A stretch of DNA of 60,019 nt, counting the filler. It is 4 parts of 4 records of this genome, joined end to end, with 100 filler letters (N's around TTAATTAATTAA, not from the genome) between each part and the next. Parts side by side here need not be neighbours in the genome. Positions count along the whole stretch, not along the records: positions 54,481 to 60,019 come from SRR22947727_1577; 3 more parts are not named here. One strand, written 5' to 3'. Below, in pieces: positions 42,798-60,019 of this stretch. Every line of letters begins with the position of its first letter. Within the stretch, counting starts at the first letter, position 1. The notes under the pieces were generated by a model. That model searched no databases and was not told where the DNA came from. It saw only the letters and a list, made by a program, of their open reading frames with translations. A program made the translations under genes and the position numbers.

Positions 42798-44966
42798 TTA
42801 AGCCGCTTTGGCTTGTACCTTTTTTTCCAGCCTGCGTGCGTGCAAAACCGGCTCGGTATAGCCTGATGGCTGCTCAATGCCTTTAAAGACAAGATCAAGC
42901 GCTGCTTGAAAGGCAATTGACTCGTCAAAATGCCCAGCCATTGGTTCATAAGATGCGTCACCGGCATTTTGTGCATCGACGACAGCCGCCATTTCCTTCA
43001 TCACATCCATAACAAGATCGGCATCACAGATTTTATGGTGAAGCCAATTGGCAATATGCTGTGATGAAATCCGCAAAGTGGCGCGATCTTCCATCAAACC
43101 AACATTGTGAATATCGGGTACTTTCGAACAGCCAACACCCTGATCAATCCAGCGAACGACATAGCCAAGAATGCCCTGGGCATTATTGCGCAATTCGGCG
43201 CGTATATCTTCATCTGACCAATTTGGACGGCTGGCAACCGGAATCGACAGAATATCTGACCGGCTGGCGCGTGCCTTTCCGGTCAATTCGGCTTGACGTT
43301 TGGCAACATCAACCTCGTGATAATGCAAGGCATGCAACGTGGCGGCGGTTGGTGATGGCACCCAGGCGCAATTAGCACCGGCTTTTGGATGGCCAATCTT
43401 CTGGGTAATCATATCGGCCATCAAATCTGGCATGGCCCACATGCCTTTGCCAATTTGTGCCTTGCCCGAAAATCCACAAGCAAGCCCAATATCGACATTC
43501 CAATCTTCATAGGCTGAAATCCATGCTGCGGCTTTCATATCGCCTTTGCGGATCATTGCGCCAGCATACATTGATGTATGAATCTCATCGCCCGTGCGAT
43601 CAAGGAATCCGGTATTGATAAAGGCAACGCGTGATTTCGCCGCCCGGATACATTCTTTCAAATTAACCGTGGTACGGCGTTCTTCATCCATGATGCCAAT
43701 TTTGATAGTATTGGCAGGAAGCTGAAGAAGCTGTTCGACCATATCAAAGGTTTCAACAGCAAAAGCCACTTCATCGGGGCCGTGCATTTTGGGTTTTACA
43801 ACATAGATTGAACCGGCTGGTGAATTCTGCTTGCTGGCAAAATCAGGCAGCGCCGCGGCAACTGAAATAAACGCATCTAAAATACCTTCGGGAATTTCAC
43901 TCCCATCGGATAAAAGTACGGCCGGGTTACTCATCAAATGCCCAACATTGCGAACCAGCATCAAGGCCCGTCCGCGCAGCGTCTGACGGCTGCCGTCAGC
44001 GGCGATAAAGCTTTTATCGTCATTCAATTTGCGATCCATCATTTCACCATTCTTGGTGAAGCTCGCGGTCAGGGTGCCGCGCATGATCTTGTTCCAATTG
44101 CGATAGGCAAGAACCTTATCTTCAGCATCAACCGCGGCAATCGAATCTTCAAGATCAATGATGCTTGTCAGTGCTGATTCAACCATTACATCATTAATAT
44201 GCGCTGCATCACCGGCGCCAATCGTGCCATTGGCATCAATGATGATTTCAAGATGAAGCCCGTTCTTGATCAGAATAACGCTGCTTGGTGAATCGGCTTT
44301 GCCGGTATAGCCGACAAACTGGTCATGATCGCCAAGGTCTGTATGGCCATCACCCATTGCCACGACAAGCGACTCATCGGCAATGGCAAAACCGGTTACA
44401 TCATTCCAACTGCCCTTTGCCAGCGGTGCTGATTTATTCAAAAGATCACGCGCAAAGGCAATGACCTTATTGCCACGAACCGGATTATAGCTGTTTGTTT
44501 TTTCGGCGCCATCGGCGTCACCAATCGCATCAGTTCCGTATAGCGCGTCATAAAGACTGCCCCAACGCGCATTGGCGGCGTTCAGCGAATAGCGTGCATT
44601 GGTAATTGGCACAACAAGCTGTGGGCCGGCAATGGTGGCAATTTCAGGATCGACATTGCTGGTTTCAATGTTGAAATCGCCGCCATCTGCATGAAGATAG
44701 CCAATGTCACTTAAAAATGATTCATAGGCGACTGGATCAATGCCGTCATTGCTATGTGCTTTTAGCCAGTCATTAATCTGGTTTTGCAGCTTGGCCCTTG
44801 TTTCCAAAAGTGCCTGATTTTTGGGCGCAAGTTGGTGCGCCACCTGATCAAAACCGGTCCAGAAATCTGCAGGCGTGATATTGGTGCCAGCAAGAATTTC
44901 GTCATTCACTAAATCATAAAGAACCGTGGCAATGGTTAAACCGCCATGGATGGTAACATCTGACAT
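42798..44966 (-). CDS. glcB: Malate synthase G
   Basis: [62 protein letters not shown]. Start MSDV at 44966 with SD GGAG. Confidence 0.96.
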
Positions 44967-45162
44967 TATTTGCTCCGCTTTAGCAGGCAACCCGTGACGT
45001 TCATCGGGAAGGGGGGCATGGATGAAATTTTTTTCATCTTTAACCGAAGCGGCCGGTCGTTTCAAGTTGCAAGGCGCGTGTTTTGCTGGAAATCGTCATA
45101 ATTCGGGGGTAGATTTTTCGGTAATTGGTTTTTGATGACCAAACTGTTCAAGGCGGCTGGTT

Positions 45163-46548
45163 TTATGGCCGCTGCCATGCCAGCCCAGCACCAGCCAACG
45201 CATCTTCAATTTGACCAACAAGCGTGTTTAGAATTTCGGGTGTTTTGCCCTCGGCCCGCGCGACAAGCGCCGCCTCGGTGTTTGAGGCGCGAACAAGCCA
45301 CCAGCCGTCATCATTTTGCACTCTTACGCCATCAATAAGGTTTAGGTTTTCTTCGCCAAACCGCGCTTTTGCTTCAATGGCAAGCCGGTCAATAACACCA
45401 AATTTCTGATCATCAGGGCAATCAATGCGTAATTCAGGCGTTGCATGTTGTGGCGGCAAGCCATCAACAAAATCGGTGATGCTTTGGCCGGTCTTGGCCA
45501 TCTGACAAAGAACGCGAAGGCCAACATAAAGCGCATCATCAAATCCGTAAAACCCGTCCTTGATAAAAATATGTCCTGACATTTCACCGGCCAATGGTGC
45601 GTTAATTTCGGCCATTCGGGTCTTCATGTGGCTATGTCCGGTTTTCCAGATTTGCGCATCACCACCACCCTCGGCGATTAAGGCCATCGCCATATCGGAT
45701 GATTTCACATCGAGAATAATTGGCGCACCGGCATGCCGTGCCAAAATATCACGCGCCAGAAAAGCGGTTAAGAAATCCCCTGGCACCTGACGGCCTTTGG
45801 CATCGACAATGCCAATCCGGTCGCCGTCACCATCAAAGCCAATGCCAAGATCTGCGCCAGCATCAGCAACAGCTTTTCGTAAAATGGCTAAAGTTTCTGG
45901 ATCAACAGGGTTGGGGTGATGATTGGGAAATGTGCCATCAATATCGCCAAACAGGACTTTGTGATTGCCACTGATTTTCTGTGTTGCGGCAATTGTCGCT
46001 GGTCCTGATGCGCCATTGCCACAATCCCAAATCACGGTGAAATCGCCGGTATTGGTATCGGCAATCAGGCGACTGATATAATCGTCAAAAATTGGCACTT
46101 CGCTGTGGCTACCCCCTTCTTGAAGTGTGGGGCCATTGGCGCTGATGGCACCAAGGTCTTGAATATCATCACCAAAGAAAACCGTGCCATCCATCACCAT
46201 TTTAAACCCGTTATGTGTTGGCGGGTTATGCGATCCGGTTACTTGGATGGCGGCGTTGGCGTTAAGGGTGACACCAGCATAATAAAGCATCGGTGTAGGG
46301 CCACATCCAATATCACTAACCCGCGCCCCGCCGGCAACCAAACCATCGCAAAGCGCTGCTGCCAGAGCGGGTGATGATAATCGTCCATCACGGCCAACCG
46401 CGACATGATTGCCATAGCCGCGTTGGCGAAGACAGGCAGCAAAAGCAATGCCAATGGCCTTTGCATCATTCAGCGTCAATGTCTTATCAACAATGCCGCG
46501 AATGTCATAAGCGCGTAAAATGCTTGGATGAAAAACATGCTTTGTCAT
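45163..46548 (-). CDS. Phosphomannomutase/phosphoglucomutase
   Basis: AYDIRG, TGSHNP, FDGDGDR, GEMSGH, RASNTE. Confidence 0.94.
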   Translation of the reverse strand: MTKHVFHPSILRAYDIRGIVDKTLTLNDAKAIGIAFAACLRQRGYGNHVAVGRDGRLSSPALAAALCDGLVAGGARVSDIGCGPTPMLYYAGVTLNANAAIQVTGSHNPPTHNGFKMVMDGTVFFGDDIQDLGAISANGPTLQEGGSHSEVPIFDDYISRLIADTNTGDFTVIWDCGNGASGPATIAATQKISGNHKVLFGDIDGTFPNHHPNPVDPETLAILRKAVADAGADLGIGFDGDGDRIGIVDAKGRQVPGDFLTAFLARDILARHAGAPIILDVKSSDMAMALIAEGGGDAQIWKTGHSHMKTRMAEINAPLAGEMSGHIFIKDGFYGFDDALYVGLRVLCQMAKTGQSITDFVDGLPPQHATPELRIDCPDDQKFGVIDRLAIEAKARFGEENLNLIDGVRVQNDDGWWLVRASNTEAALVARAEGKTPEILNTLVGQIEDALAGAGLAWQRP

Positions 46549-54380: not shown

Positions 54381-54480
54381 NNNNNNNNNNNNNNNNNNNN
54401 NNNNNNNNNNNNNNNNNNNNNNNNTTAATTAATTAANNNNNNNNNNNNNNNNNNNNNNNNNNNNNNNNNNNNNNNNNNNN
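54381..54480. other. Artificial contig linker
   Basis: N run + TTAATTAATTAA + N run, 100 bp. Confidence 0.98.
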
Positions 54481-54580
54481 TTTTTTTTTTTTTTTTTTTT
54501 TTCTGGCCTATATACTATAACCGCGTAATTTAAGTTCCGCGGCCCGCGCACTCCGATCCTTGTTCCATCCCCCACAAACC

Positions 54581-54610
54581 AAAGGCCCCACGCATTTAGC
54601 GCAGGGCCTT
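54581..54610 (-). terminator. Probable terminator ending the leftward phage transcript
   Basis: Minus strand AAGGCCCTGCGC-TAAAT-GCGTGGGGCCTTT followed by GGTTTGT. Confidence 0.6.
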
Positions 54611-54667
54611 ATTATTAGAACGCTGGTGCATAGCCATAACGTATTCTCTTAGTGTTTGGCCGTACAT
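54596..54667 (-). CDS. Possible 23-aa peptide MYGQTLREYVMAMHQRSNNKALR
   Basis: AGGAAG upstream of the ATG; overlaps the end of the previous gene; stop lies in the terminator loop. Confidence 0.3.
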   Translation of the reverse strand: MYGQTLREYVMAMHQRSNNKALR

Positions 54668-54951
54668 TGTTGTTCTTCCTGTATTGTTTCGAGCGTGTCT
54701 CGCACTTCTTGCCAGCTTCTACAAAACAGATTGTCGTCCCATCCTTTGGGCCCAACGGCGTCTTTGTAGTATTCTACTATACAACACCAATCGTGGGTTT
54801 TCCGTTCGATGGTTAGTTCGATGTTCATTTCTTTTGCTAATTTCTTAGCGTGGTATCGATCTCTGTTGTTTTTCTTTACTTGCTCTTTTTCCCGTTTTTC
54901 TTTTTCGGGGTCTTTAAGCAAGTTTCCAAACATCAATTCAATGAAGTCCAT
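54649..54951 (-). CDS. Phage hypothetical protein (100 aa)
   Basis: SD AGGAG; first gene after promoter P4. Confidence 0.75.
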   Translation of the reverse strand: MDFIELMFGNLLKDPEKEKREKEQVKKNNRDRYHAKKLAKEMNIELTIERKTHDWCCIVEYYKDAVGPKGWDDNLFCRSWQEVRDTLETIQEEQQCTAKH

Positions 54952-55007
54952 CGTACATTCTCCTAATTGTCAAAAAGCGTTCGAGAGTTGTCCTAACCCT
55001 CAAAACA

Positions 55008-55036
55008 ACCCTACCACAAATATGGGAGAAAGTCAA
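55008..55036 (-). promoter_or_regulatory. Promoter P4 with TCCCATA box
   Basis: TTGACT-ttcTCCCATAtttgtgg (17 nt)-TAGGGT. Confidence 0.7.
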
Positions 55037-55266
55037 CTTACCCGTTTTTTAGTTCGTTGTGCTGTATACTCGAACCGGCCTTTTCCTTTACGTTTTTGCA
55101 CCAGCGAGACGAGGCCAGATCGAGCAGCTTCGAGGGCCGCGAATTTATGTTTACCGCCCGCGTATGCTCCGACGTGGTATATTATTGTGTCTCCCTGTCG
55201 CGTTGTTTTCAGTGCTTCATCGAATGTCATTTTAGCGAGGGCGTGTAGGGATATGTCGAGTATCAT
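55033..55266 (-). CDS. Phage hypothetical protein (77 aa)
   Basis: ATGA coupling with the upstream gene; GDTIIYHVG...LVQKR...FEYTAQR. Confidence 0.75.
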   Translation of the reverse strand: MILDISLHALAKMTFDEALKTTRQGDTIIYHVGAYAGGKHKFAALEAARSGLVSLVQKRKGKGRFEYTAQRTKKRVS

Positions 55267-55466
55267 ATTTGTTTTCCGGCTTTTCGTAGATTTTTAACGA
55301 AGTTGCTTAGTTCTTCTTTTGCGGACCAGAGCTCGCGTTCGATATTTAGTCTGCGGTTATATTGCTCGTTATCTGTTTTATATTTTTCGTCTTGCAGTCT
55401 ATCGACTTGGCGTCTGAGCCATTTCAGTTCGTTTTCTTGAAACGGGTTTAATTTATCGTCATCCAT
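55263..55466 (-). CDS. Phage hypothetical coiled-coil protein (67 aa)
   Basis: SD GGGAG; helical heptad pattern. Confidence 0.75.
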   Translation of the reverse strand: MDDDKLNPFQENELKWLRRQVDRLQDEKYKTDNEQYNRRLNIERELWSAKEELSNFVKNLRKAGKQI

Positions 55467-55478
55467 GCTGCTCTCCCT

Positions 55479-55667
55479 TCAGTGCATTTTTTGTTTATCG
55501 ATTTCCTCATATAGAAATGCCCCTGCCATTTCTGACACGAGGGGCCATATTCTTTCTGAGTTATATGCGGCAACGATGTTGGCTATTATGACGGCGATGT
55601 CTGGGCCGGACAGGTTTGGCGGGCAGACTTCTAAAATGTCTTCCACTGTCTTTTCTAAGTCTAACAT
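55479..55667 (-). CDS. Phage hypothetical protein (62 aa)
   Basis: AAGGTG upstream; fits the gene array. Confidence 0.7.
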   Translation of the reverse strand: MLDLEKTVEDILEVCPPNLSGPDIAVIIANIVAAYNSERIWPLVSEMAGAFLYEEIDKQKMH

Positions 55668-55704
55668 CGTTGCGCACCTTTTGTTTTTGGATTAAGTTAT
55701 TTTA

Positions 55705-55786
55705 GAGGCCAGCTGTACTTTTAACCACTGTTGTTTGTTGGTTGAGCACTACCAGAAAGCGCCACTTTCCGATCATGGCTGGCCTC
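55705..55786. ncRNA. Candidate structured RNA (three-way junction)
   Basis: Perfect 9-bp closing stem GAGGCCAGC/GCTGGCCTC enclosing two hairpins, in the intergenic gap. Confidence 0.4.
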
Positions 55787-55792
55787 ACGATT

Positions 55793-55957
55793 TTATCCCT
55801 CAAATATAAATTTCATATCTTCGAAGGATACTTCTTTTCTAGCCAACATTTGTTCTTCTATTTTCTGTCGGCGCAGTTCTGTTCCGCTTGGTGGCAATTC
55901 GCCGAACACCGCTTTAAACGCCTGATCTAAAGCATAATCCATTTCTTCTCTACTCAT
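55793..55957 (-). CDS. Phage hypothetical protein (54 aa, MSREEMDY...)
   Basis: SD AGGAG upstream of the ATG at 55957. Confidence 0.7.
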   Translation of the reverse strand: MSREEMDYALDQAFKAVFGELPPSGTELRRQKIEEQMLARKEVSFEDMKFIFEG

Positions 55958-55973
55958 AGTAGTACTCCTATAA

Positions 55974-56585
55974 TTATTCATCGTTGAAAAGGTCAAAACC
56001 TTTGCTGGTTAAAGCCTGCCCGCTCTTTAGAACGTGGTCCGTGCGGTAACCCCGTTTCGTAGCATAGCCTCTCATTTTCCGCAGGGCCTTGGCCTCTATA
56101 TGACGAGCCCTCTCCCTCGTAACGCCCATTGCTTTACCCGTTTGTTCTAAAGACTGATTCAGTGCAAAACGTAGCGATATGCAACGGCGCTCTCTTGGTG
56201 ATAATCCGCTGGACAAATCTGAGATCGCACTAAATTGGGCCAGAGTTTTCTCGGTGGACCCGTCTTGCATTATGCTCTTTACGCTGTCCAAACCAACTTC
56301 CATTTCAGATGACGATTTTGATAACTGTAACTCACGAAGGTGTTCGGGCCATAACTCCTCTGGCTCTTTGCCAACCATTGCCGCAACATCCAAAGCTAAG
56401 TCTGTCCAACCGTTGTGGTTAAATGGCTTTAACTTCATCCTAACAAGAGCCCCTAGCTGAGACTTACCTCTGACTAATTGACGAGATAAATCCGAAACCG
56501 AATCATACTTTTCCCTGATCGCACTTAATAGCCTGCCGTTGCGTACCGACACCTTAATGTTGAAATCTTTGTCCTCCTCCATCAT
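55974..56585 (-). CDS. Phage protein with a possible N-terminal HTH and a C-terminal sigma-70 region 4 domain
   Basis: LSPRERRCISLRF...SLEQTGKAMGVTRERARHIEAKALRKMR matches sigma-70 region 4.2; no region 2 recognisable. Confidence 0.85.
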   Translation of the reverse strand: MMEEDKDFNIKVSVRNGRLLSAIREKYDSVSDLSRQLVRGKSQLGALVRMKLKPFNHNGWTDLALDVAAMVGKEPEELWPEHLRELQLSKSSSEMEVGLDSVKSIMQDGSTEKTLAQFSAISDLSSGLSPRERRCISLRFALNQSLEQTGKAMGVTRERARHIEAKALRKMRGYATKRGYRTDHVLKSGQALTSKGFDLFNDE

Positions 56586-56770
56586 TATTCCTCCTCAAAA
56601 ATAGAATTACCCAGATCAATAGGCAATTCGACTGTTGTTATTCTGAAAGAGCATTTCCTACACGCGCGGCGGCGTTTCACGGTTGGAAAGCCGTAGGCCG
56701 TGTGCTCTCGACTGTCTATCGCTTGCATTTTTACTTTGCATTTTGGGCAGTGTGTTACGACGAGGGTCAT
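56585..56770 (-). CDS. Stand-alone NrdR-like zinc-ribbon protein
   Basis: HCPKC...IDSR...VKRRRACRKCSFRITTVE parallels the NrdR N-terminus (CPxC...DSR...RRRRECxxCxxRFTTxE); no ATP cone. SD spacing favours the ATG at 56770. Confidence 0.8.
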   Translation of the reverse strand: MTLVVTHCPKCKVKMQAIDSREHTAYGFPTVKRRRACRKCSFRITTVELPIDLGNSIFEEE

Positions 56771-56795
56771 TAACATTCTCCTGTTTGGTTTTTAC

Positions 56796-56824
56796 AGGAT
56801 ATAAATGGTATGGGATAAAGTCAA
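56796..56824 (-). promoter_or_regulatory. Promoter P3 with TCCCATA box
   Basis: TTGACT-ttaTCCCATAccattta (17 nt)-TATCCT. Confidence 0.72.
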
Positions 56825-56844
56825 CCAAATTTATTCACACAAAG

Positions 56845-56879
56845 AAAAAGCCCTCAGTCAGGACATGAACTGAGGGCTT
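56845..56879 (-). terminator. Intrinsic terminator
   Basis: Minus strand AAGCCCTCAGT-TCATGTCCTG-ACTGAGGGCTT followed by TTTCTTT. Confidence 0.85.
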
Positions 56880-56908
56880 AGTCACTAATTAAACATTGGA
56901 GAATGTCT
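56845..56908 (-). ncRNA. Predicted ~64-nt sRNA with an anti-Shine-Dalgarno loop
   Basis: Lies between promoter P2 and an intrinsic terminator; 5' hairpin AGACAUU-CUCC-AAUGUUU; no ORF with a ribosome-binding site. Confidence 0.6.
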
Positions 56909-56911
56909 AAG

Positions 56912-57088
56912 TCATTTATACGCGACTTTATGGGAGGTGTCAACGTTCTTATCGCGGTTTTGGGCATATACATCGAACATAACTCGGAGTTGTCCACTTA
57001 TTGTACGTCCGTTGGCCGCGGAATCCAGTTTTATTTCCTTGTAAACCTCGATTGGTACAAGAACACTTTTCCATTTTGTCGTATCCAT
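56912..57088 (-). CDS. Ribbon-helix-helix (Arc/CopG-like) DNA-binding protein, 58 aa, missing from the ORF track
   Basis: MDTTKWKSVLVPIEVYKEIKLDSAANGRTISGQLRVMFDVYAQNRDKNVDTSHKVAYK: strand KSVLVP, helix, GRTIS turn, helix. SD GAGG; own promoter P1. Confidence 0.75.
   Translation of the reverse strand: MDTTKWKSVLVPIEVYKEIKLDSAANGRTISGQLRVMFDVYAQNRDKNVDTSHKVAYK
56915..56943 (-). promoter_or_regulatory. Promoter P2 with TCCCATA box, inside the 3' end of the RHH gene
   Basis: TTGACA-ccTCCCATAaagtcgcg (17 nt)-TATAAA. Confidence 0.75.
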
Positions 57089-57115
57089 AAGGCAATCCTC
57101 GTCGCTTCACGGCCG

Positions 57116-57144
57116 ACCATATAGGAGTTTATGGGAACCTGCAA
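57116..57144 (-). promoter_or_regulatory. Promoter P1 with TCCCATA box
   Basis: TTGCAG-gtTCCCATAaactccta (17 nt)-TATGGT. Confidence 0.68.
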
Positions 57145-57159
57145 GAAAAAACCTTTTCA

Positions 57160-57426
57160 TCAATCTGACGATGATTTATTTGGGCCTCTTGTACCTCTAA
57201 AAACTATTTCGTGAATTGATCCCGTTGGGCCGCGTCTTTCTGAAAGAAGGACACCAGCTTGATGGTTTACAATACATAAGTCATCTTTAGAAGTGTTCGA
57301 TGGATCGACTAGCTCATCACAAAAGATTTGTGCTTTTTTTCGTATCGCCGTGTCAAGTTCGCTCGCATCTTCGAAGGTTTTTGCTTCAAAATCAATAACG
57401 ACAACGGCTCTCAAAGAGTTTCCCAT
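57160..57426 (-). CDS. Phage hypothetical protein (88 aa)
   Basis: SD AAGGA; full-length ORF on the gene-bearing strand. Confidence 0.72.
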   Translation of the reverse strand: MGNSLRAVVVIDFEAKTFEDASELDTAIRKKAQIFCDELVDPSNTSKDDLCIVNHQAGVLLSERRGPTGSIHEIVFRGTRGPNKSSSD

Positions 57427-57499
57427 TTTATTTCCTTTCTGGTTACAGGGCTTAACAAATACACCATATAACTAGCACTGTAAATATGTTTATATAAAT

Positions 57500-57531
57500 A
57501 AAAAACCCTCTTGCGGTTTAAGGCAAGAGGG
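57500..57531 (-). terminator. Intrinsic terminator after the polymerase gene
   Basis: Minus strand CCCTCTTGC-CTTAAACC-GCAAGAGGG-TTTTTT. Confidence 0.85.
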
Positions 57532-57574
57532 CAGTTGGAAGTGGTGGGCGTATATCGAGCAGTACGCCAAGCCT

Positions 57575-59470
57575 CTAAACAGCTTCTCCCCAGTTCGGAC
57601 CCACTTCAACATCACATTTGCTAGGGATTTCTAATGGTACTGCATTTATCATTATTTTTGCAATACTCTCGGCCTCTTCTTTTGTTTTTACAGACATACA
57701 AAGCTCGTCATGCACTTGCAGCATTGGAAGATACCCTTCCTTGTACAGATCAACCATTGCTTTCTTGGTCATGTCCGCGGCAGACGCTTGGATTAGCCTG
57801 TTCAAAGCTTTGTAGGTAAACGCCCGTTTGAGGCGGCAGGTGTCTCCATACTCCAGAACAGCCTCTTGGTACGGCAGCGCCTTGGTCATCTCGAACGAAT
57901 CGGGCTCCCAGAGGTTAAAACGACATTTGCGGCCAAGGATAGAGCTTATCGCCCCGCCACTGGCTTTGCTGTTCAGGCGTTCTGTAACCCCGTTCATCAA
58001 CGCTTTTACGAAAGGCACACGGTCATGGTACTGTTTCACCAAAACTTTGGCCTCGCTGGCCTCAATATCCAGCTGATCGGCTAATTTAGCGACCCCCATG
58101 CCGTACATCATGCCCAGATTGATGGTTTTCGCTTGTTTACGAGGGATGTCGGCCATTTCAGCGACCATTGTGTGAAAATCCATGTTCGGATCGTTTTTGT
58201 AACTCTCAACAAACTCTTCGACCCCGCGGAGCGCGATACCCCGGCTTTTACCGTAGACATGAGCGTAATGAACCAAGATGCGCGGTTCTTGCTGCGAGTA
58301 ATCTATTGACGCCCACTGTTCGCCCTCTTCTGGCAGGAACAATGACCGGATAAGGGGCCCGATCTCAGGATCGCGGGCCGGGATTTGTTGTAAGTTGGGG
58401 TTATTCATCGAAAAGCGGCCAGAGACAGTACCCCCATCGTCTCCTCTGATCTGATTGATGTGCGAGTGCACTCGACCATCGCTGTGGCAAAATTTTAGGA
58501 TGTTATTTATAAAAGTTCCGCTGGTTTTGTTAAGATTTCGGGCTTGAACGATTAATTGAGGTAATTTTTCCGGATGTTCGGCCAAAAACTGTTTTTTAAA
58601 CGATGGAGCGCCCTTTTCTGTCTTTGGATATGGTATTGATAACTTATCAAAGGCTTTCGCCACAGAGTTTGCCGCCCATATTTCCACATCATTACCAACA
58701 AGGCTCCTTATTTCTTTTAAAACTGTCTTTTCGCGCTTGAGGATCGCGTCGCGTGTTCTTTCGGTCTTGTCCATGTCAACACGAACACCTCTCCATGTCA
58801 TATTGACCAAGCAGGGGAGCAAATCCAATTCTAGATTGACAATATTCCAAAGATTTTGCTTTCCGACCTCAACTCTTAGATAATCCCATAGCTGTAGGGT
58901 CACTTCGGCGTCCGTTTGGGCATATGGTCCGACGTACATGGCGGGCATTTTCCACATATCGGCCTTTGGATCGAAGCCGAACTCTTTTGCGGCCTCTCTG
59001 AGCAGGCTCTCGTTCTTTGCGAGGCCCAGATATTCGAAAGCTAGTGAGTTTAGTGCATAAGAAAACTTATTTTCGTCCAAAAGGGACGCGACAACCATCG
59101 TGTCGATGATCCGACCGTTAATTTCAAAGCCCATGCGCTTAATCCAGCCCACGTCATACTGGGCGTTGTGCATAACTTTGTCTGCGGGGCACTCAAAAAC
59201 CTTTTTCAGCCACTTGTTGACGATTTTCTCGTCCAAATTACCGCCGCCGCGGTGTCTTGTAGGGATATATCCCGCCCAGTCGGCTGTTGCGACGGCATAT
59301 CCGACCACTTCACCGTCGCCCACAGCCCAACCGGGACCGTTTTTCTTGATATTTGGGTCTCGGGTCTCAACATCGATAGCAATTGTCTTTGCATCGGTAA
59401 GATCGGGCAGTTCTGCGGGTGGAACCCACTCTGAATTCAGGGATGGCGTAGCCATTTTCAAATTTGCCAC
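57575..59470 (-). CDS. Phage family A DNA polymerase with 3'-5' exonuclease
   Basis: ExoI DVET, ExoII HNAQYD, ExoIII YAQTD; GTVSGRFS..NPNLQQIP; motif A DYSQQEPR; motif B RKQAKTINLGMMYG; motif C QVHDEL. Confidence 0.96.
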   Translation of the reverse strand: MANLKMATPSLNSEWVPPAELPDLTDAKTIAIDVETRDPNIKKNGPGWAVGDGEVVGYAVATADWAGYIPTRHRGGGNLDEKIVNKWLKKVFECPADKVMHNAQYDVGWIKRMGFEINGRIIDTMVVASLLDENKFSYALNSLAFEYLGLAKNESLLREAAKEFGFDPKADMWKMPAMYVGPYAQTDAEVTLQLWDYLRVEVGKQNLWNIVNLELDLLPCLVNMTWRGVRVDMDKTERTRDAILKREKTVLKEIRSLVGNDVEIWAANSVAKAFDKLSIPYPKTEKGAPSFKKQFLAEHPEKLPQLIVQARNLNKTSGTFINNILKFCHSDGRVHSHINQIRGDDGGTVSGRFSMNNPNLQQIPARDPEIGPLIRSLFLPEEGEQWASIDYSQQEPRILVHYAHVYGKSRGIALRGVEEFVESYKNDPNMDFHTMVAEMADIPRKQAKTINLGMMYGMGVAKLADQLDIEASEAKVLVKQYHDRVPFVKALMNGVTERLNSKASGGAISSILGRKCRFNLWEPDSFEMTKALPYQEAVLEYGDTCRLKRAFTYKALNRLIQASAADMTKKAMVDLYKEGYLPMLQVHDELCMSVKTKEEAESIAKIMINAVPLEIPSKCDVEVGPNWGEAV

Positions 59471-59649
59471 TAGTCTCTGTCCTCTGTGAAACTATCTGTC
59501 CTTACCCATCTTGCAACCAAAGTTAGCCCTCCAACATCTTTACTTAAAACTATTCCATCTAAAGGCCCTAACTTTGTAGTATTTTTGAACTTCACCCAAG
59601 GCCAATCCCCTTCATACTGTATTTCTTTTGGTATTAGTGGATTATCCAT
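59470..59649 (-). CDS. Phage hypothetical protein (59 aa), missing from the ORF track
   Basis: MDNPLIPKEIQYEGDWPWVKF...FTEDRD. SD AAGGA; overlaps the upstream stop, and its TAG shares a base with the polymerase GTG. Confidence 0.7.
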   Translation of the reverse strand: MDNPLIPKEIQYEGDWPWVKFKNTTKLGPLDGIVLSKDVGGLTLVARWVRTDSFTEDRD

Positions 59650-59971
59650 TGCTTTTTCCTTCCTTAATAATTTTATCTACGGGGCGGGCATCACGCTCGA
59701 CAAATTCCGCTCCCAGACCTGTATATCCGGCTTTATCCACCCAAGAATCCTCGTGATCTATCGTTTCTATCAGGCGGCTTGTTTTAACCCAATCCATCAT
59801 CAACGCAACGTGGGCCGGGGTTAGATAACCGTGGCTTTTTAATGCCCCGCTCATTATAATATTCCACCCATCCGCAATTCGAGCATGATTGTTGTAGGCA
59901 TCCCCGTAATCTGTGGCGCGTTGACCGTTGATAAGCTCTTTGGCGGCTTCTAATACTTCGTCTCGCTTCAT
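59642..59971 (-). CDS. DUF6378-like phage protein
   Basis: L..A..LING.RA.DYGD...N..RIA..W...VALMM...K.SR......HEDSWVDKAGY pattern. Start MKRDE at 59971. Confidence 0.75.
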   Translation of the reverse strand: MKRDEVLEAAKELINGQRATDYGDAYNNHARIADGWNIIMSGALKSHGYLTPAHVALMMDWVKTSRLIETIDHEDSWVDKAGYTGLGAEFVERDARPVDKIIKEGKSNG

Positions 59972-60019
59972 GATTCTTCTCTCGATCTGTATACTAACGT
60001 GTTGGATTGGCATTTCGGA
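59968..60019 (-). CDS. 3' end of an upstream phage gene (...PKCQSNTLVYRSREES)
   Basis: Open frame from the window edge ending in a TGA that overlaps the next ATG (ATGA). Confidence 0.45.
   Translation of the reverse strand, partial: PKCQSNTLVYRSREES

Follow-up and report, generated by a model that had tools for sequence, protein, structure and literature searches.

A predicted small RNA with an anti-Shine-Dalgarno loop, conserved beside RHH genes of uncultured marine phages

The analysed stretch of DNA (the window, 60,019 nt) contains only 5.5 kb of phage DNA. This phage part (54482-60019) is a contig of its own, and an N linker at 54381-54481 connects it to a bacterial one. All genes of the phage part are encoded on the minus strand. 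Between the gene of a small RHH-like protein and the next transcription unit, a promoter-like site is followed by a terminator at short distance. The question raised by this locus is whether a small RNA is encoded here that pairs with the ribosome-binding sites of the phage's own messages. With moderate confidence, we take the stretch to encode a small RNA that acts in trans against Shine-Dalgarno sequences, in a phage that appears to be lytic. An overview of the features is given in Table 1.

Table 1 Features of the phage part around the predicted small RNA gene (positions along the window)
Feature	Position	Strand	Basis
P1, promoter-like, precedes the RHH gene (TTGCAG, 17-nt spacer, TATGGT)	57116..57144	-	read from sequence
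RHH-like protein gene, 58 aa	56912..57088	-	Pfam, PDB profile, AlphaFold/Foldseek
P2, predicted small-RNA promoter (TTGACA, 17-nt spacer, TATAAA)	56915..56943	-	read from sequence
Predicted small RNA, 64 nt	56845..56908	-	fold and terminator scan
5' hairpin (CUCC loop 56901-56898, seed 56906-56898)	56908-56891	-	fold
Linker	56890-56880	-	fold, terminator scan
Terminator, followed by U tail	56879-56848	-	fold, terminator scan
P3, promoter-like, next transcription unit (TTGACT, 17-nt spacer with TCCCATA, TATCCT)	56796..56824	-	promoter scan
Target 1, Zn-ribbon translation start region (9-nt match 56781-56773)	56768..56786	-	word match, duplex
Zn-ribbon (NrdR-like N-terminal domain) gene, overlapping the sigma-gene start	55974..56770	-	Pfam
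Sigma-70 region 4 protein gene, 203 aa, start overlapped by the Zn-ribbon gene	56585-55974	-	Pfam
P4, promoter-like (TTGACT, 17-nt spacer with TCCCATA, TAGGGT)	55008..55036	-	box pattern
Target 2, start region of the 100-aa gene (9-nt match 54963-54955)	54949..54963	-	word match, duplex
100-aa gene, function without assignment	54951-54649	-	second target gene

Anatomy of the locus

The architecture described in the original prediction, namely P2, a strong terminator close to it and a 5' hairpin presenting CUCC, was recovered in full. In the predicted fold of the 64-nt RNA, a 7-bp 5' hairpin, closed by the four-nucleotide loop CUCC, is followed by a linker and the terminator. The folding energy is -22.6 kcal/mol (z = -4.36); none of 200 shuffled sequences was as stable. 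The terminator stem comprises 12 pairs, six of them G-C, followed by a T run. Together with the compensatory pairs seen in relatives, these are the properties of an intrinsic terminator at which a discrete 3' end would be formed. A search for sites complementary to the terminator loop, as a possible second seed, gave nothing convincing. No Rfam family reached its gathering score in the window or in eight related loci. A permissive scan of positions 56700-57000 returned 12 weak matches, the best of which (29.3 bits, cut-off 49) is located on the opposite strand. Four marine RNA-library runs, which stem from two studies, contain 29-40% of the words sampled. Contigs from such libraries cover positions 56697-56969 and neighbouring parts, these assemblies being without strand, ends or level and possibly containing DNA.

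TCCCATA-type boxes had been proposed as a common promoter element and are indeed found in the spacers of P1 to P4. The P1 box is located at 57136-57130, and relatives share the same box and spacing. In P2, the -35 element (56943-56938), the box (56935-56929) and the -10 element (56920-56915) all fall within the final 11 codons of the 58-codon RHH gene. P2 is not reported by a sigma-70 promoter scan because the final base of its -10 element is not T. P3 has 9 of 12 matches in the promoter scan and is kept in relatives; P4 is conserved in a related genome (G002), where it lies upstream of the equivalent target. Among 25 unique RHH genes of class A (see below for classes), codons 48-58 have a synonymous codon entropy of 0.33, compared with 0.88 for codons 1-47 (p = 0.005). 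In classes B, C, G and I, the P2-type box is located 3' of the RHH stop codon. The layout of -35, box and -10 is kept in all classes, inside as well as outside reading frames, with an imperfect -10 in the window. As far as can be judged from these patterns, P2 behaves as a constrained DNA element. In a scan with the promoter-box pattern, the matches listed were mostly due to chance, and only those accompanied by the full module were used.

The neighbouring gene probably encodes a protein of RHH fold. Its Pfam match to RHH_5 (E = 0.012, 15.8 bits) stays below the 26-bit cut-off, and a profile comparison with the PDB yields AvtR (E = 0.002) and Mnt (E = 0.48). The AlphaFold monomer (pLDDT 77.6) has helices at residues 13-26 and 30-56 and an N-terminal segment without a called strand. 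RHH proteins make up almost all of its best Foldseek hits (E 0.4-3, TM 0.5-0.7); CopG is included, and Arc is among the closest fold matches. IMG/VR holds 524 relatives of the protein, and a tblastn search of 50,697 deposited phage genomes gave no match. The four relatives of the gene found in MAGs by a contig scan are spread over four different taxa, so that the host cannot be inferred from them. The phage part gave no match in the nearest genome (G001). Both genes of the downstream unit are above the Pfam cut-off, the Zn-ribbon gene with Zn_ribbon_NrdR (E = 1.8e-8) and the sigma gene with Sigma70_r4 (E = 5.8e-14). According to the DNA polymerase, the nearest cultured phages are DSL-LC04 (56%) and the Pelagibacter phages HTVC023P and HTVC027P (49%). 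The module was not seen beside the polymerase gene in 13 kb each of DSL-LC04 and HTVC023P.

The 9-mer GGAGAATGT occurs three times in the window, at 54955-54963 and 56773-56781 on the minus strand and inverted at 56898-56906 on the plus strand. By chance, 0.34 copies would be expected, and three copies were obtained in 1 of 100 shuffles. As had been claimed, the 9-mer is limited to two ribosome-binding sites and the RNA gene itself. Both targets are located on the same minus strand as the RNA, 64 nt (target 1) and about 1.9 kb (target 2) downstream of its end. For target 1, energies of -17.3 (duplex) and -7.9 kcal/mol (cofold binding) were obtained, and the duplex fold contains the additional pairing across a 2-nt bulge that had been described. 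Its probable start codon is 56770-56768 (56776 in the ORF listing); relatives use the second ATG. Target 2 is the strongest among 11 start regions (duplex -20.7, cofold binding -16.5 kcal/mol). Nine other start regions of the window that were compared, with cofold binding of 0 to -6.1 kcal/mol, are weaker than both named targets. A single 9-nt match is found in about 12% of CUCC-preserving shuffles (p about 0.12; 21 start regions, whole 39-nt 5' domain). The window alone does not show more than chance complementarity, and it is the comparison across relatives that bears the case.

Conservation and target complementarity in related phages

Promoter box, 5' domain and terminator, as called by a heuristic, are present together in 76 of the 78 closest RHH loci (those with at least 200 nt downstream), and the other two show the module by eye. 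Overall, the module was detected in 164 of 304 RHH loci, corresponding to 59 unique 5' domains in eight classes; the sequences within a class are related and the independent lineages number about 3 to 5, so these counts are not independent events. In all 19 representatives that were folded, a single-stranded stretch separates a 5' hairpin from a terminator, and CUCC or UCC is located in a loop or in an unpaired flank. In class I, the variable 5' hairpin was not aligned by MAFFT/RNAalifold, and its presence there is that of single-sequence folds. Compensatory changes were found at seven pairs of the terminator stem in class A (16 sequences) and at five pairs in class I. The seed hairpin of class A is invariant, and its stem is thus without covariation support. 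Three loci that are related through the sigma-like protein (L001-L003) retain the Zn-ribbon and sigma genes, with other genes upstream; the RHH/RNA module is absent from them.

In G002, a class A genome of 56 kb (96% complete), all six sense-strand seed matches of at least 9 nt directly precede start codons. They are located within 7.3 kb downstream of the RNA gene, and four of them comprise 11 nt. On the antisense strand, a single match reaches 9 nt, and none is longer. Shuffled sequences yield a mean of 0.10-0.14 11-mers, and none of 1000 shuffles reached the four observed. The matches belong to six different genes, each the first behind a promoter-like site or a terminator. G003, a class B genome, has a distinct seed. 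Over 13 nt, this seed matches the gene that comes first after the next promoter, and the start-region matches of at least 9 nt number seven in total. When the RNAs of the two classes were swapped, the start regions matched over at least 9 nt fell from six to two (class A) and from seven to two (class B), and those matched over at least 11 nt from four to none and from two to none, respectively.

Seed and sites thus differ together between classes A and B, which is the covariation that had been expected in relatives. A single orthologous pair of targets illustrates this (376 and 375 aa, 64% identity): the site carries U in one and C in the other, and the matching seed carries A and G, respectively. 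In class G, a 15-nt match beside the Shine-Dalgarno sequence is present in two of three loci. Complementarity that changes along with the targets was found for classes A, B and G, but not for I2, I3 and C. In a shuffle test of the 59 unique representatives, 24 reached p ≤ 0.05. These are distributed over classes B (14/15), A (6/20), G (2/3), C (1/3) and I3 (1/3); no significant start-region match was present in the sequence examined of I1 (0/7), I2 (0/6) and most of C and I3. Whole genomes gave one start-region match each for I2 and I3 and none for C. Complementarity at the start region behind P3 is only loose in many relatives of class A, where it covers 6-8 nt or includes a bulge. Mismatches compatible with G-U pairing make up 8 of 26 possible ones in the near-matches of class B, which is about chance. 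Orthology between the 376-aa target of class A and the 397-aa targets of class I was considered and dropped, as blastp at E ≤ 1e-5 gave no support.

Alternative readings and a possible mode of action

The complementarity could be a mere by-product of a conserved start-region cassette, kept as a recombination joint or as an efficient ribosome-binding site, next to a terminator with an accidental hairpin and without any regulation. The chance level of the window match would agree with this, and so would the extended start-region consensus that these phages have in common and their mosaic joints, which coincide exactly with start regions. It is nevertheless the least probable of the readings considered. 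Hairpin and seed are kept from 100% down to about 72% RHH identity, the promoter box is constrained, and the seeds and sites of classes A and B change together. Moreover, the number of 11-mers in G002 was not equalled by shuffling, and controls stayed low across six genomes, both with the reversed RNA (0, 1, 0, 0, 1 and 0 matches) and in coding windows (2, 0, 0, 1, 0 and 0 matches). The 9-11-bp word might also be an operator, bound by one of the several small DNA-binding proteins that the phage encodes (RHH, Zn-ribbon, sigma-like), without RNA pairing. Both orientations are equivalent on double-stranded DNA, and the hairpin copy behind P2, which is nearly palindromic, coincides with the predicted start of transcription. 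An operator is very unlikely, however, to explain a word that always lies on the Shine-Dalgarno sequence, with the start codon 3-5 nt further on, at variable distances from the promoter, as is the case in G002. The sole inverted copy in the 56 kb of this genome sits in the promoter-terminator mini-unit. The targets of class B match the 5' arm and the loop, not the other half of the palindrome, and in class I RNAs the CUCC/UCC motif is found in a single strand that is not palindromic. Furthermore, in a class A variant with an A-to-G change in the seed, pairing with the unchanged site is retained through G-U.

Two further readings accept the hairpin as part of a functional RNA. In cis, hairpin and terminator would form the 3' UTR of the RHH message and the leader of read-through transcripts. 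CUCC would then fold onto the ribosome-binding site about 120 nt downstream so that only transcripts from P3 are translated, or the terminator would serve as a regulated attenuator. The hairpin terminator is the only one of the RHH gene, so the RHH message must contain the small-RNA sequence. One RNA-library contig, which may be DNA, extends from the RHH gene across hairpin and terminator to P3. At several loci of class I (e.g. L225), the Shine-Dalgarno sequence follows within about 10 nt of the terminator with no promoter in between, an arrangement that looks like a leader rather than a free-standing RNA gene. In the window, by contrast, P3 stands between the terminator and the first target. 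A promoter-like site is kept 20-30 nt before the hairpin in every class, also outside reading frames, and most matching sites in class A and B genomes are 3-8 kb distant, behind promoters and terminators of their own. We therefore consider action in cis unlikely. Alternatively, the RNA may be real but bind a protein as a decoy or titrator, with the RHH regulator and host RNA chaperones as candidates, or it may act on host messages. Terminator loops are conserved within classes without a complementary site having been found, in a search that covered phage sequence. It has also been reported in a preprint that RNA hairpins can be bound by regulators of phage early operons (10.64898/2026.07.27.740549). 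Such a role appears quite unlikely, given that the conserved, co-changing part is the CUCC seed opposite phage start regions and that the hairpin showed no resemblance to the TCCCATA box.

For the preferred reading, a small RNA acting in trans, the following course of events is proposed. Host RNA polymerase would produce an RNA of about 64 nt from P2, embedded in the 3' end of the RHH gene, and the RNA would end at its own intrinsic terminator. Its weak, A/U-rich 5' hairpin would display CUCC, and the seed would be composed of this loop, the 5' arm and the two A residues that follow the loop. In several phage mRNAs, mostly at the first cistron after a promoter, the seed is predicted to pair with the Shine-Dalgarno sequence and the bases beside it. 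Pairing would hide the ribosome-binding site and thereby reduce translation, and probably mRNA stability as well. In the window, the Zn-ribbon gene and the 100-aa gene would be the targets, and the sigma-region-4 gene would probably be affected too via its overlapping stop/start with the Zn-ribbon gene. Further targets are likely, because the window includes only 5.5 kb of the phage. The RNA probably acts alongside the RHH protein, which, we infer, represses the TCCCATA-box promoters P1 to P4. Together, the two may brake or time early and middle gene expression in a phage for which no signs of lysogeny were seen.

A two-layer switch of repressor and small RNA over the Zn-ribbon/sigma-4 operon had been proposed originally. 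From this proposal, the discrete and conserved promoter-hairpin-terminator unit remains, with an exposed CUCC motif complementary to ribosome-binding sites at other places in the same phage. The aim at one operon had to be given up, as the first gene after P3 occurs in at least 14 variants among module-sharing loci and the matching sites of G002 precede six different genes. Likewise, a role in lysis-lysogeny decisions or immunity finds no support in the relatives: a tyrosine integrase was found in none of five near-complete genomes, in a search whose control was positive in 14 of 14 genomes.

A more far-reaching and rather doubtful version of the trans-acting model is a lineage barcode. Here, each lineage would tag the first cistrons of five to seven operons by a flank of GGAG peculiar to it, one RNA would read the tag, and the RNA of a resident phage would silence the operons of an incoming close relative. 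If this were true, RNA-based exclusion between lytic phages would be added to the temporal control of a phage's early and middle genes. Escape from cross-silencing would have left its trace in the way seeds and tags have diversified (A, B, G, I). The system would resemble the c4 heteroimmunity of P1 and P7, but would be genome-wide and without lysogeny. The highly variable first gene after P3 could be an anti-defence cassette under a double brake of RHH protein and RNA.

Relation to known systems

The locus had been put forward as an undescribed system, and no description of the RNA family was found in Rfam 15, in the 50,697 deposited phage genomes or in the full-text literature searched. Taken together, the sequence comparisons point to a large, apparently undescribed small-RNA family in abundant uncultured marine phages of lytic appearance. 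The base-pairing phage RNAs known to us come from a handful of temperate model phages and mostly guard one antirepressor gene. If confirmed, RNA-based post-transcriptional timing would be a common device in environmental phages. The family would also provide a natural set of orthogonal pairs of RNA and ribosome-binding site, and the conserved promoter-RNA-promoter module would help to locate early regions, with their hypervariable early genes, in uncultured phages.

The sar RNA of P22 is transcribed opposite its single target and overlaps it. Unlike sar, the predicted RNA is encoded on the same minus strand as both of its targets, 60 nt to several kb away from such sites, and would reach several genes via a short seed. 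In addition, P22 is a temperate phage; among relatives of the phage studied here, the search returned no integrase. The likeness lies in other features: sar is encoded in immI of P22, the region of the RHH repressors Arc and Mnt, and according to the cited account it blocks translation by pairing with the ribosome-binding site (PMC12197685). Its size of about 65-70 nt, its position beside an RHH repressor gene, the pairing with a ribosome-binding site and the control at both transcription and translation would all be shared with the predicted RNA.

The c4 RNA of P1 and P7 is trans-acting, as the predicted RNA would be; it is encoded just upstream of the genes it controls and pairs with the ribosome-binding region through exposed loops, and differences in its seed between related phages give specificity. 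The heteroimmunity of P1 and P7 is described in the same account (PMC12197685). Membership in the Rfam C4 family was rejected, as no covariance-model match at or near the gathering score was obtained in the window and the eight related loci, and none of the weak matches of the permissive scan was C4. c4 is excised from an operon transcript, the same one that carries its downstream target. In the window, the terminator and P3 separate the RNA from the first target. In contrast to c4, the predicted RNA has a putative promoter and a terminator of its own and many predicted targets, with no antirepressor or lysogeny context.

Bacterial small RNAs of the RsaE/RoxS type use C-rich loops to pair with Shine-Dalgarno sequences. 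The mechanism would be the same, with an unpaired C/U-rich motif that occludes GGAG in several messages and an intrinsic terminator. RsaE/RoxS-type RNAs are chromosomal and serve host metabolism, whereas the predicted RNA is phage-encoded, has its putative promoter inside a regulator gene, and its seed reaches the lineage-specific flanks of the phage's own start regions. In the copy control of plasmid pMV158, the RHH protein CopG is combined with antisense RNA II. Here as there, an RHH repressor and a small RNA blocking a ribosome-binding site would share one gene set; RNA II, however, is a counter-transcript with full complementarity to a single target, and the pMV158 system sets the plasmid copy number.

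A further relation exists to the Aca regulators of anti-defence operons. In the description given of these in a preprint, the second brake is the protein itself, bound to 5' leader hairpins, whereas it would be a separate RNA here. The RHH gene is also located upstream in its own unit instead of at the end of the regulated operon, and no known anti-defence gene was identified among the phage genes examined. The Aca regulators include an RHH protein, Aca14, and control of translation is described for Aca2 (10.64898/2026.07.27.740549). On the basis of this description, the two arrangements would have in common a small repressor, several strong early promoters with a common box and a second brake at the ribosome-binding site; the first gene behind the promoter is highly variable.

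Layout of the phage part and the predicted small RNA gene

Two contigs make up the window, with an N linker between them at 54381-54481; the first is bacterial and the second (54482-60019) is a phage fragment. Since they are merely joined by the linker, integration of the phage beside bacterial genes is not implied. The linker contains a stop-codon spacer, and a run of 24 T, perhaps a contig-end assembly artefact, opens the phage part (linker and run together, 54381-54505). No tRNA genes are found in the window. For the Zn-ribbon gene, ORF calling places the start at ATG 56776, inside the Shine-Dalgarno spacer; relatives and spacing point to the ATG at 56770 as the true start, which would give 61 aa.

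Features of the phage part in the direction of transcription
Feature	Coordinates	Strand	Position
DUF6378 gene, then family A DNA polymerase gene with its own terminator		minus	5'-most in the phage part
88-aa gene		minus	after the polymerase terminator, before P1
P1, promoter-like	57144-57116	minus	
58-aa gene, RHH-like (ribbon-helix-helix)	57088-56912	minus	
Predicted small RNA	56908-56845	minus	
P3, promoter-like	56824-56796	minus	
Zn-ribbon gene overlapping sigma-70 region 4 gene		minus	after P3
Several small genes		minus	between the sigma-70 region 4 gene and P4
P4, promoter-like	55036-55008	minus	
100-aa gene		minus	after P4

All elements of the original prediction, namely the promoter P2, the hairpin, the terminator and the 9-mer sites, are borne out in the window sequence. 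P2 consists of TTGACA (56943-56938), a 17-nt spacer with the TCCCATA box, and TATAAA (56920-56915). The final 11 codons of the RHH gene contain the whole of it, and the stop codon comes directly 3' of the -10 element. A consensus promoter scan reports P3 and not P2, because the final -10 base of P2 is not T. Predicted folding of the 64-nt RNA gives a 7-bp hairpin whose loop is CUCC, then an 11-nt linker, then the terminator (-22.6 kcal/mol, z = -4.36), and this terminator is among the three strongest in 12 kb scanned.

Codon usage shows P2 to be under constraint: in class A, the RNA lineage of the window, synonymous codon entropy is 0.33 at the promoter box vs 0.88 in the remaining RHH gene (25 unique genes, p = 0.005). 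The RHH gene is shorter in classes B, C, G and I and also in one class A branch (L072), and there the identical arrangement of -35, box and -10 is found 0 to 180 nt past the stop codon. The -10 hexamer of class I is a perfect consensus. A conserved promoter immediately before the hairpin favours synthesis of the RNA in its own right, and not only as the tail of the RHH message. In class I promoters (L214-L273), an inverted repeat spans the -35 region with the box as its right half, a layout that would be expected of an operator bound by a dimeric or tetrameric repressor.

Seed and target sites

The 9-mer complementary to the seed occurs in three copies in the window, two before start codons and one inverted in the hairpin (expected 0.34). 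Predicted RNA binding to both start regions, those of the Zn-ribbon gene and the 100-aa gene, exceeds that to nine other start regions of the window. With CUCC-preserving shuffles, a single 9-nt match among 21 start regions has p ~0.12, and the window by itself is suggestive, not conclusive.

Near-complete relatives extend this picture. In the class A genome G002 (56,049 bp, 96% complete), six sites on the sense strand are complementary to the 19-nt hairpin region over 9 nt or more, each immediately before a start codon and no more than 7.3 kb downstream of the RNA gene. Four of the six are 11 nt long, compared with a shuffle mean of 0.10-0.14 (0/1000 shuffles with four); the antisense strand has one 9-mer and none longer. 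The target ORFs span 49 to 376 codons, each is the first after a promoter-like site or terminator, and function searches gave no assignment for them. Two later target genes have another type of promoter-like box ahead of them, along with a G+C-rich leader hairpin (43800-43937 and 45080-45203; loci L370); these boxes may be middle promoters recognized with the help of the sigma-like protein of the phage.

The class B genome G003 (57,751 bp, 98% complete) has matches of at least 9 nt at seven start regions. Its second hairpin has a different stem and the same CUCC loop, and the 5' arm and loop form a 13-nt match at the first gene after the next promoter. When the RNAs of G002 and G003 are exchanged, start-region matches of at least 9 nt fall from 6 to 2 and from 7 to 2, respectively, and those of at least 11 nt from 4 to 0 and from 2 to 0. 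One target gene has orthologues in both genomes (376 and 375 aa, 64% identity), and their sites differ at a single base: U for class A, C for class B, facing the exact seed position that is A in class A and G in class B. In two of three unique class G loci, a 15-nt match adjoins the Shine-Dalgarno sequence of a gene lying 1.4-1.5 kb downstream.

Across a six-genome matrix, own-genome matches number 6 (A), 7 (B), 4 (I1), 1 (I3), 1 (I2) and 0 (C), with 0, 1, 0, 0, 1, 0 for reversed RNA and 2, 0, 0, 1, 0, 0 for coding windows. Sequence support for seed-target pairing is thus strong for A and B and fair for G and I1, and is absent for I2, I3 and C within the sequence examined. Covariation of seed and targets, proposed as a check on the candidate, is seen in classes A and B, where exchange loses matches, and in class G, and not in the I2, I3 and C sequence examined.

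Pure chance is an unlikely source of these matches, given the losses on RNA exchange, the promoter constraint, the six-genome controls and the 11-mer shuffle test. That the shared word is instead a DNA operator is disfavoured: it keeps a fixed spacing to start codons, the class B match is one-sided, the sole inverted copy sits within the promoter-terminator unit, and one seed variant retains pairing solely via G-U. Over near-matches in general, G-U-compatible mismatches are about as frequent as chance in class B (8 of 26 possible). Action in cis on read-through transcripts, or a role as attenuator, is a real possibility and fits some class I loci, which have no promoter between the terminator and the next gene; it leaves unexplained the distant targets behind their own promoters.

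Proposed function and known systems

Most likely, and as the simplest reading, the RNA is a trans-acting small RNA that would lower translation of the cistrons that come first in several phage operons. Its 5'-terminal seed would cover the Shine-Dalgarno sequence and lineage-specific flanking bases. In the window, the putative targets are the Zn-ribbon gene and the 100-aa gene, and probably also the sigma-region-4 gene, because the Zn-ribbon stop overlaps the next start. The neighbouring protein has a predicted RHH fold and is the obvious candidate binder of the TCCCATA boxes in the P1-P4 spacers.

The original prediction of a small RNA with ribosome-binding-site matches stands; its interpretation is supported in part, and an immunity switch over a single operon is not supported. 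A tyrosine integrase is found in none of five near-complete relatives (the control was positive in 14/14 genomes), which favours control of early and middle genes in a lytic cycle, as a brake or a timer, over an immunity switch. Nor does the RNA appear dedicated to the Zn-ribbon/sigma-4 operon: the first gene after P3 has at least 14 different forms among loci sharing the RHH-RNA-P3 module (L015-L073), so that a position rather than a particular gene appears to be regulated. The mosaic joint falls either within the P3 leader or on the ribosome-binding site (window 56768-56800; L015-L073), and an RNA-library contig also departs from the window at 56792.

Blocking of ribosome-binding sites, as proposed here, is likewise the mode of P22 sar and P1 c4, and bacterial C-rich-loop RNAs work similarly. 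Sar-type membership was rejected because the small RNA and its targets share one strand without overlapping; C4 membership was rejected because no model matches and the RNA has its own terminator. In CopG/RNA II, an RHH repressor is reportedly paired with a translation-level brake, as proposed for the phage RHH protein and small RNA. Aca regulators (preprint 10.64898/2026.07.27.740549) also resemble this pairing of repressor and translation-level brake.

In agreement with the suggestion of an undescribed RNA, no Rfam family reaches the gathering score in the window, and none matches eight related loci of all classes. The part considered of a 2025 review of phage small RNAs covers sar, c4, OOP and others, with nothing comparable (PMC12197685), and no description of such an RNA was found in the literature, compared largely at abstract level. 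None of the deposited phage genomes encodes the RHH protein. Of the cultured phages with the nearest DNA polymerases, two (DSL-LC04 and Pelagibacter phage HTVC023P) have no module next to the polymerase gene. The RNA appears to be an anti-Shine-Dalgarno RNA that has several targets, co-varies with them and is widespread among uncultured marine phages, its transcript and effect being predicted.

Structure and spread of the module

All 19 representatives, which cover all classes, fold into a 5' hairpin and a terminator separated by an unpaired stretch; 0 or 1 of 200 shuffles fold equally well in 18 of them, and 14 in L228. The hairpin loop of class A and class B RNAs holds the CUCC. Class I RNAs instead have a single-stranded motif with UCC directly after the hairpin, and the stem sequence varies by lineage. 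Compensatory changes are found in terminator stems (7 pairs in class A, 5 in class I). The class A seed hairpin is invariant and hence uninformative on stem pairing, an invariance that would follow if the sequence itself serves as seed. Terminator loops are kept within classes, G/U/C-rich in class I (L214-L287) and with a loop of its own in class A (window 56871-56856); no sites complementary to the class A loop were found. Class B RNAs (L078-L094, L262) carry an additional 5' hairpin with a second CUCC-containing loop; one 9-nt match to a start region is seen in G003.

The comparison drew on the best 80 of 524 IMG/VR relatives of the RHH protein and on further scans, two with diverged RHH proteins and one with the promoter box. 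By a heuristic call (all elements no more than 480 nt downstream), the module of promoter box, 5' domain and terminator is present in 164 of 304 RHH-bearing loci, with 59 unique 5' domains in classes A, B, C, G, I1, I2, I3 and 'other'. Its frequency drops with distance from the RHH protein of the window, from 76/78 in the closest set (the remaining two have it by eye) to 36/78 around L156 and 2/77 in the most distant set, around L108. The module thus belongs to one branch of the RHH family, not to the whole family. Three relatives found via the sigma-like protein have neither RHH gene nor module.

In L018, L022, L024, L025 and L034-L046, an ORF without Shine-Dalgarno sequence opens right after the terminator T run (ATG, GTG or TTG), with no P3 in between. 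In a further lineage (L101, L109, L115, L132, L141, L155, L163), the promoter box recurs behind a small Cys-rich ORF in place of the RHH gene, followed by a short hairpin RNA, a terminator and the next promoter; the single-stranded part of its RNA is complementary, with bulges, to the ribosome-binding region of the next gene.
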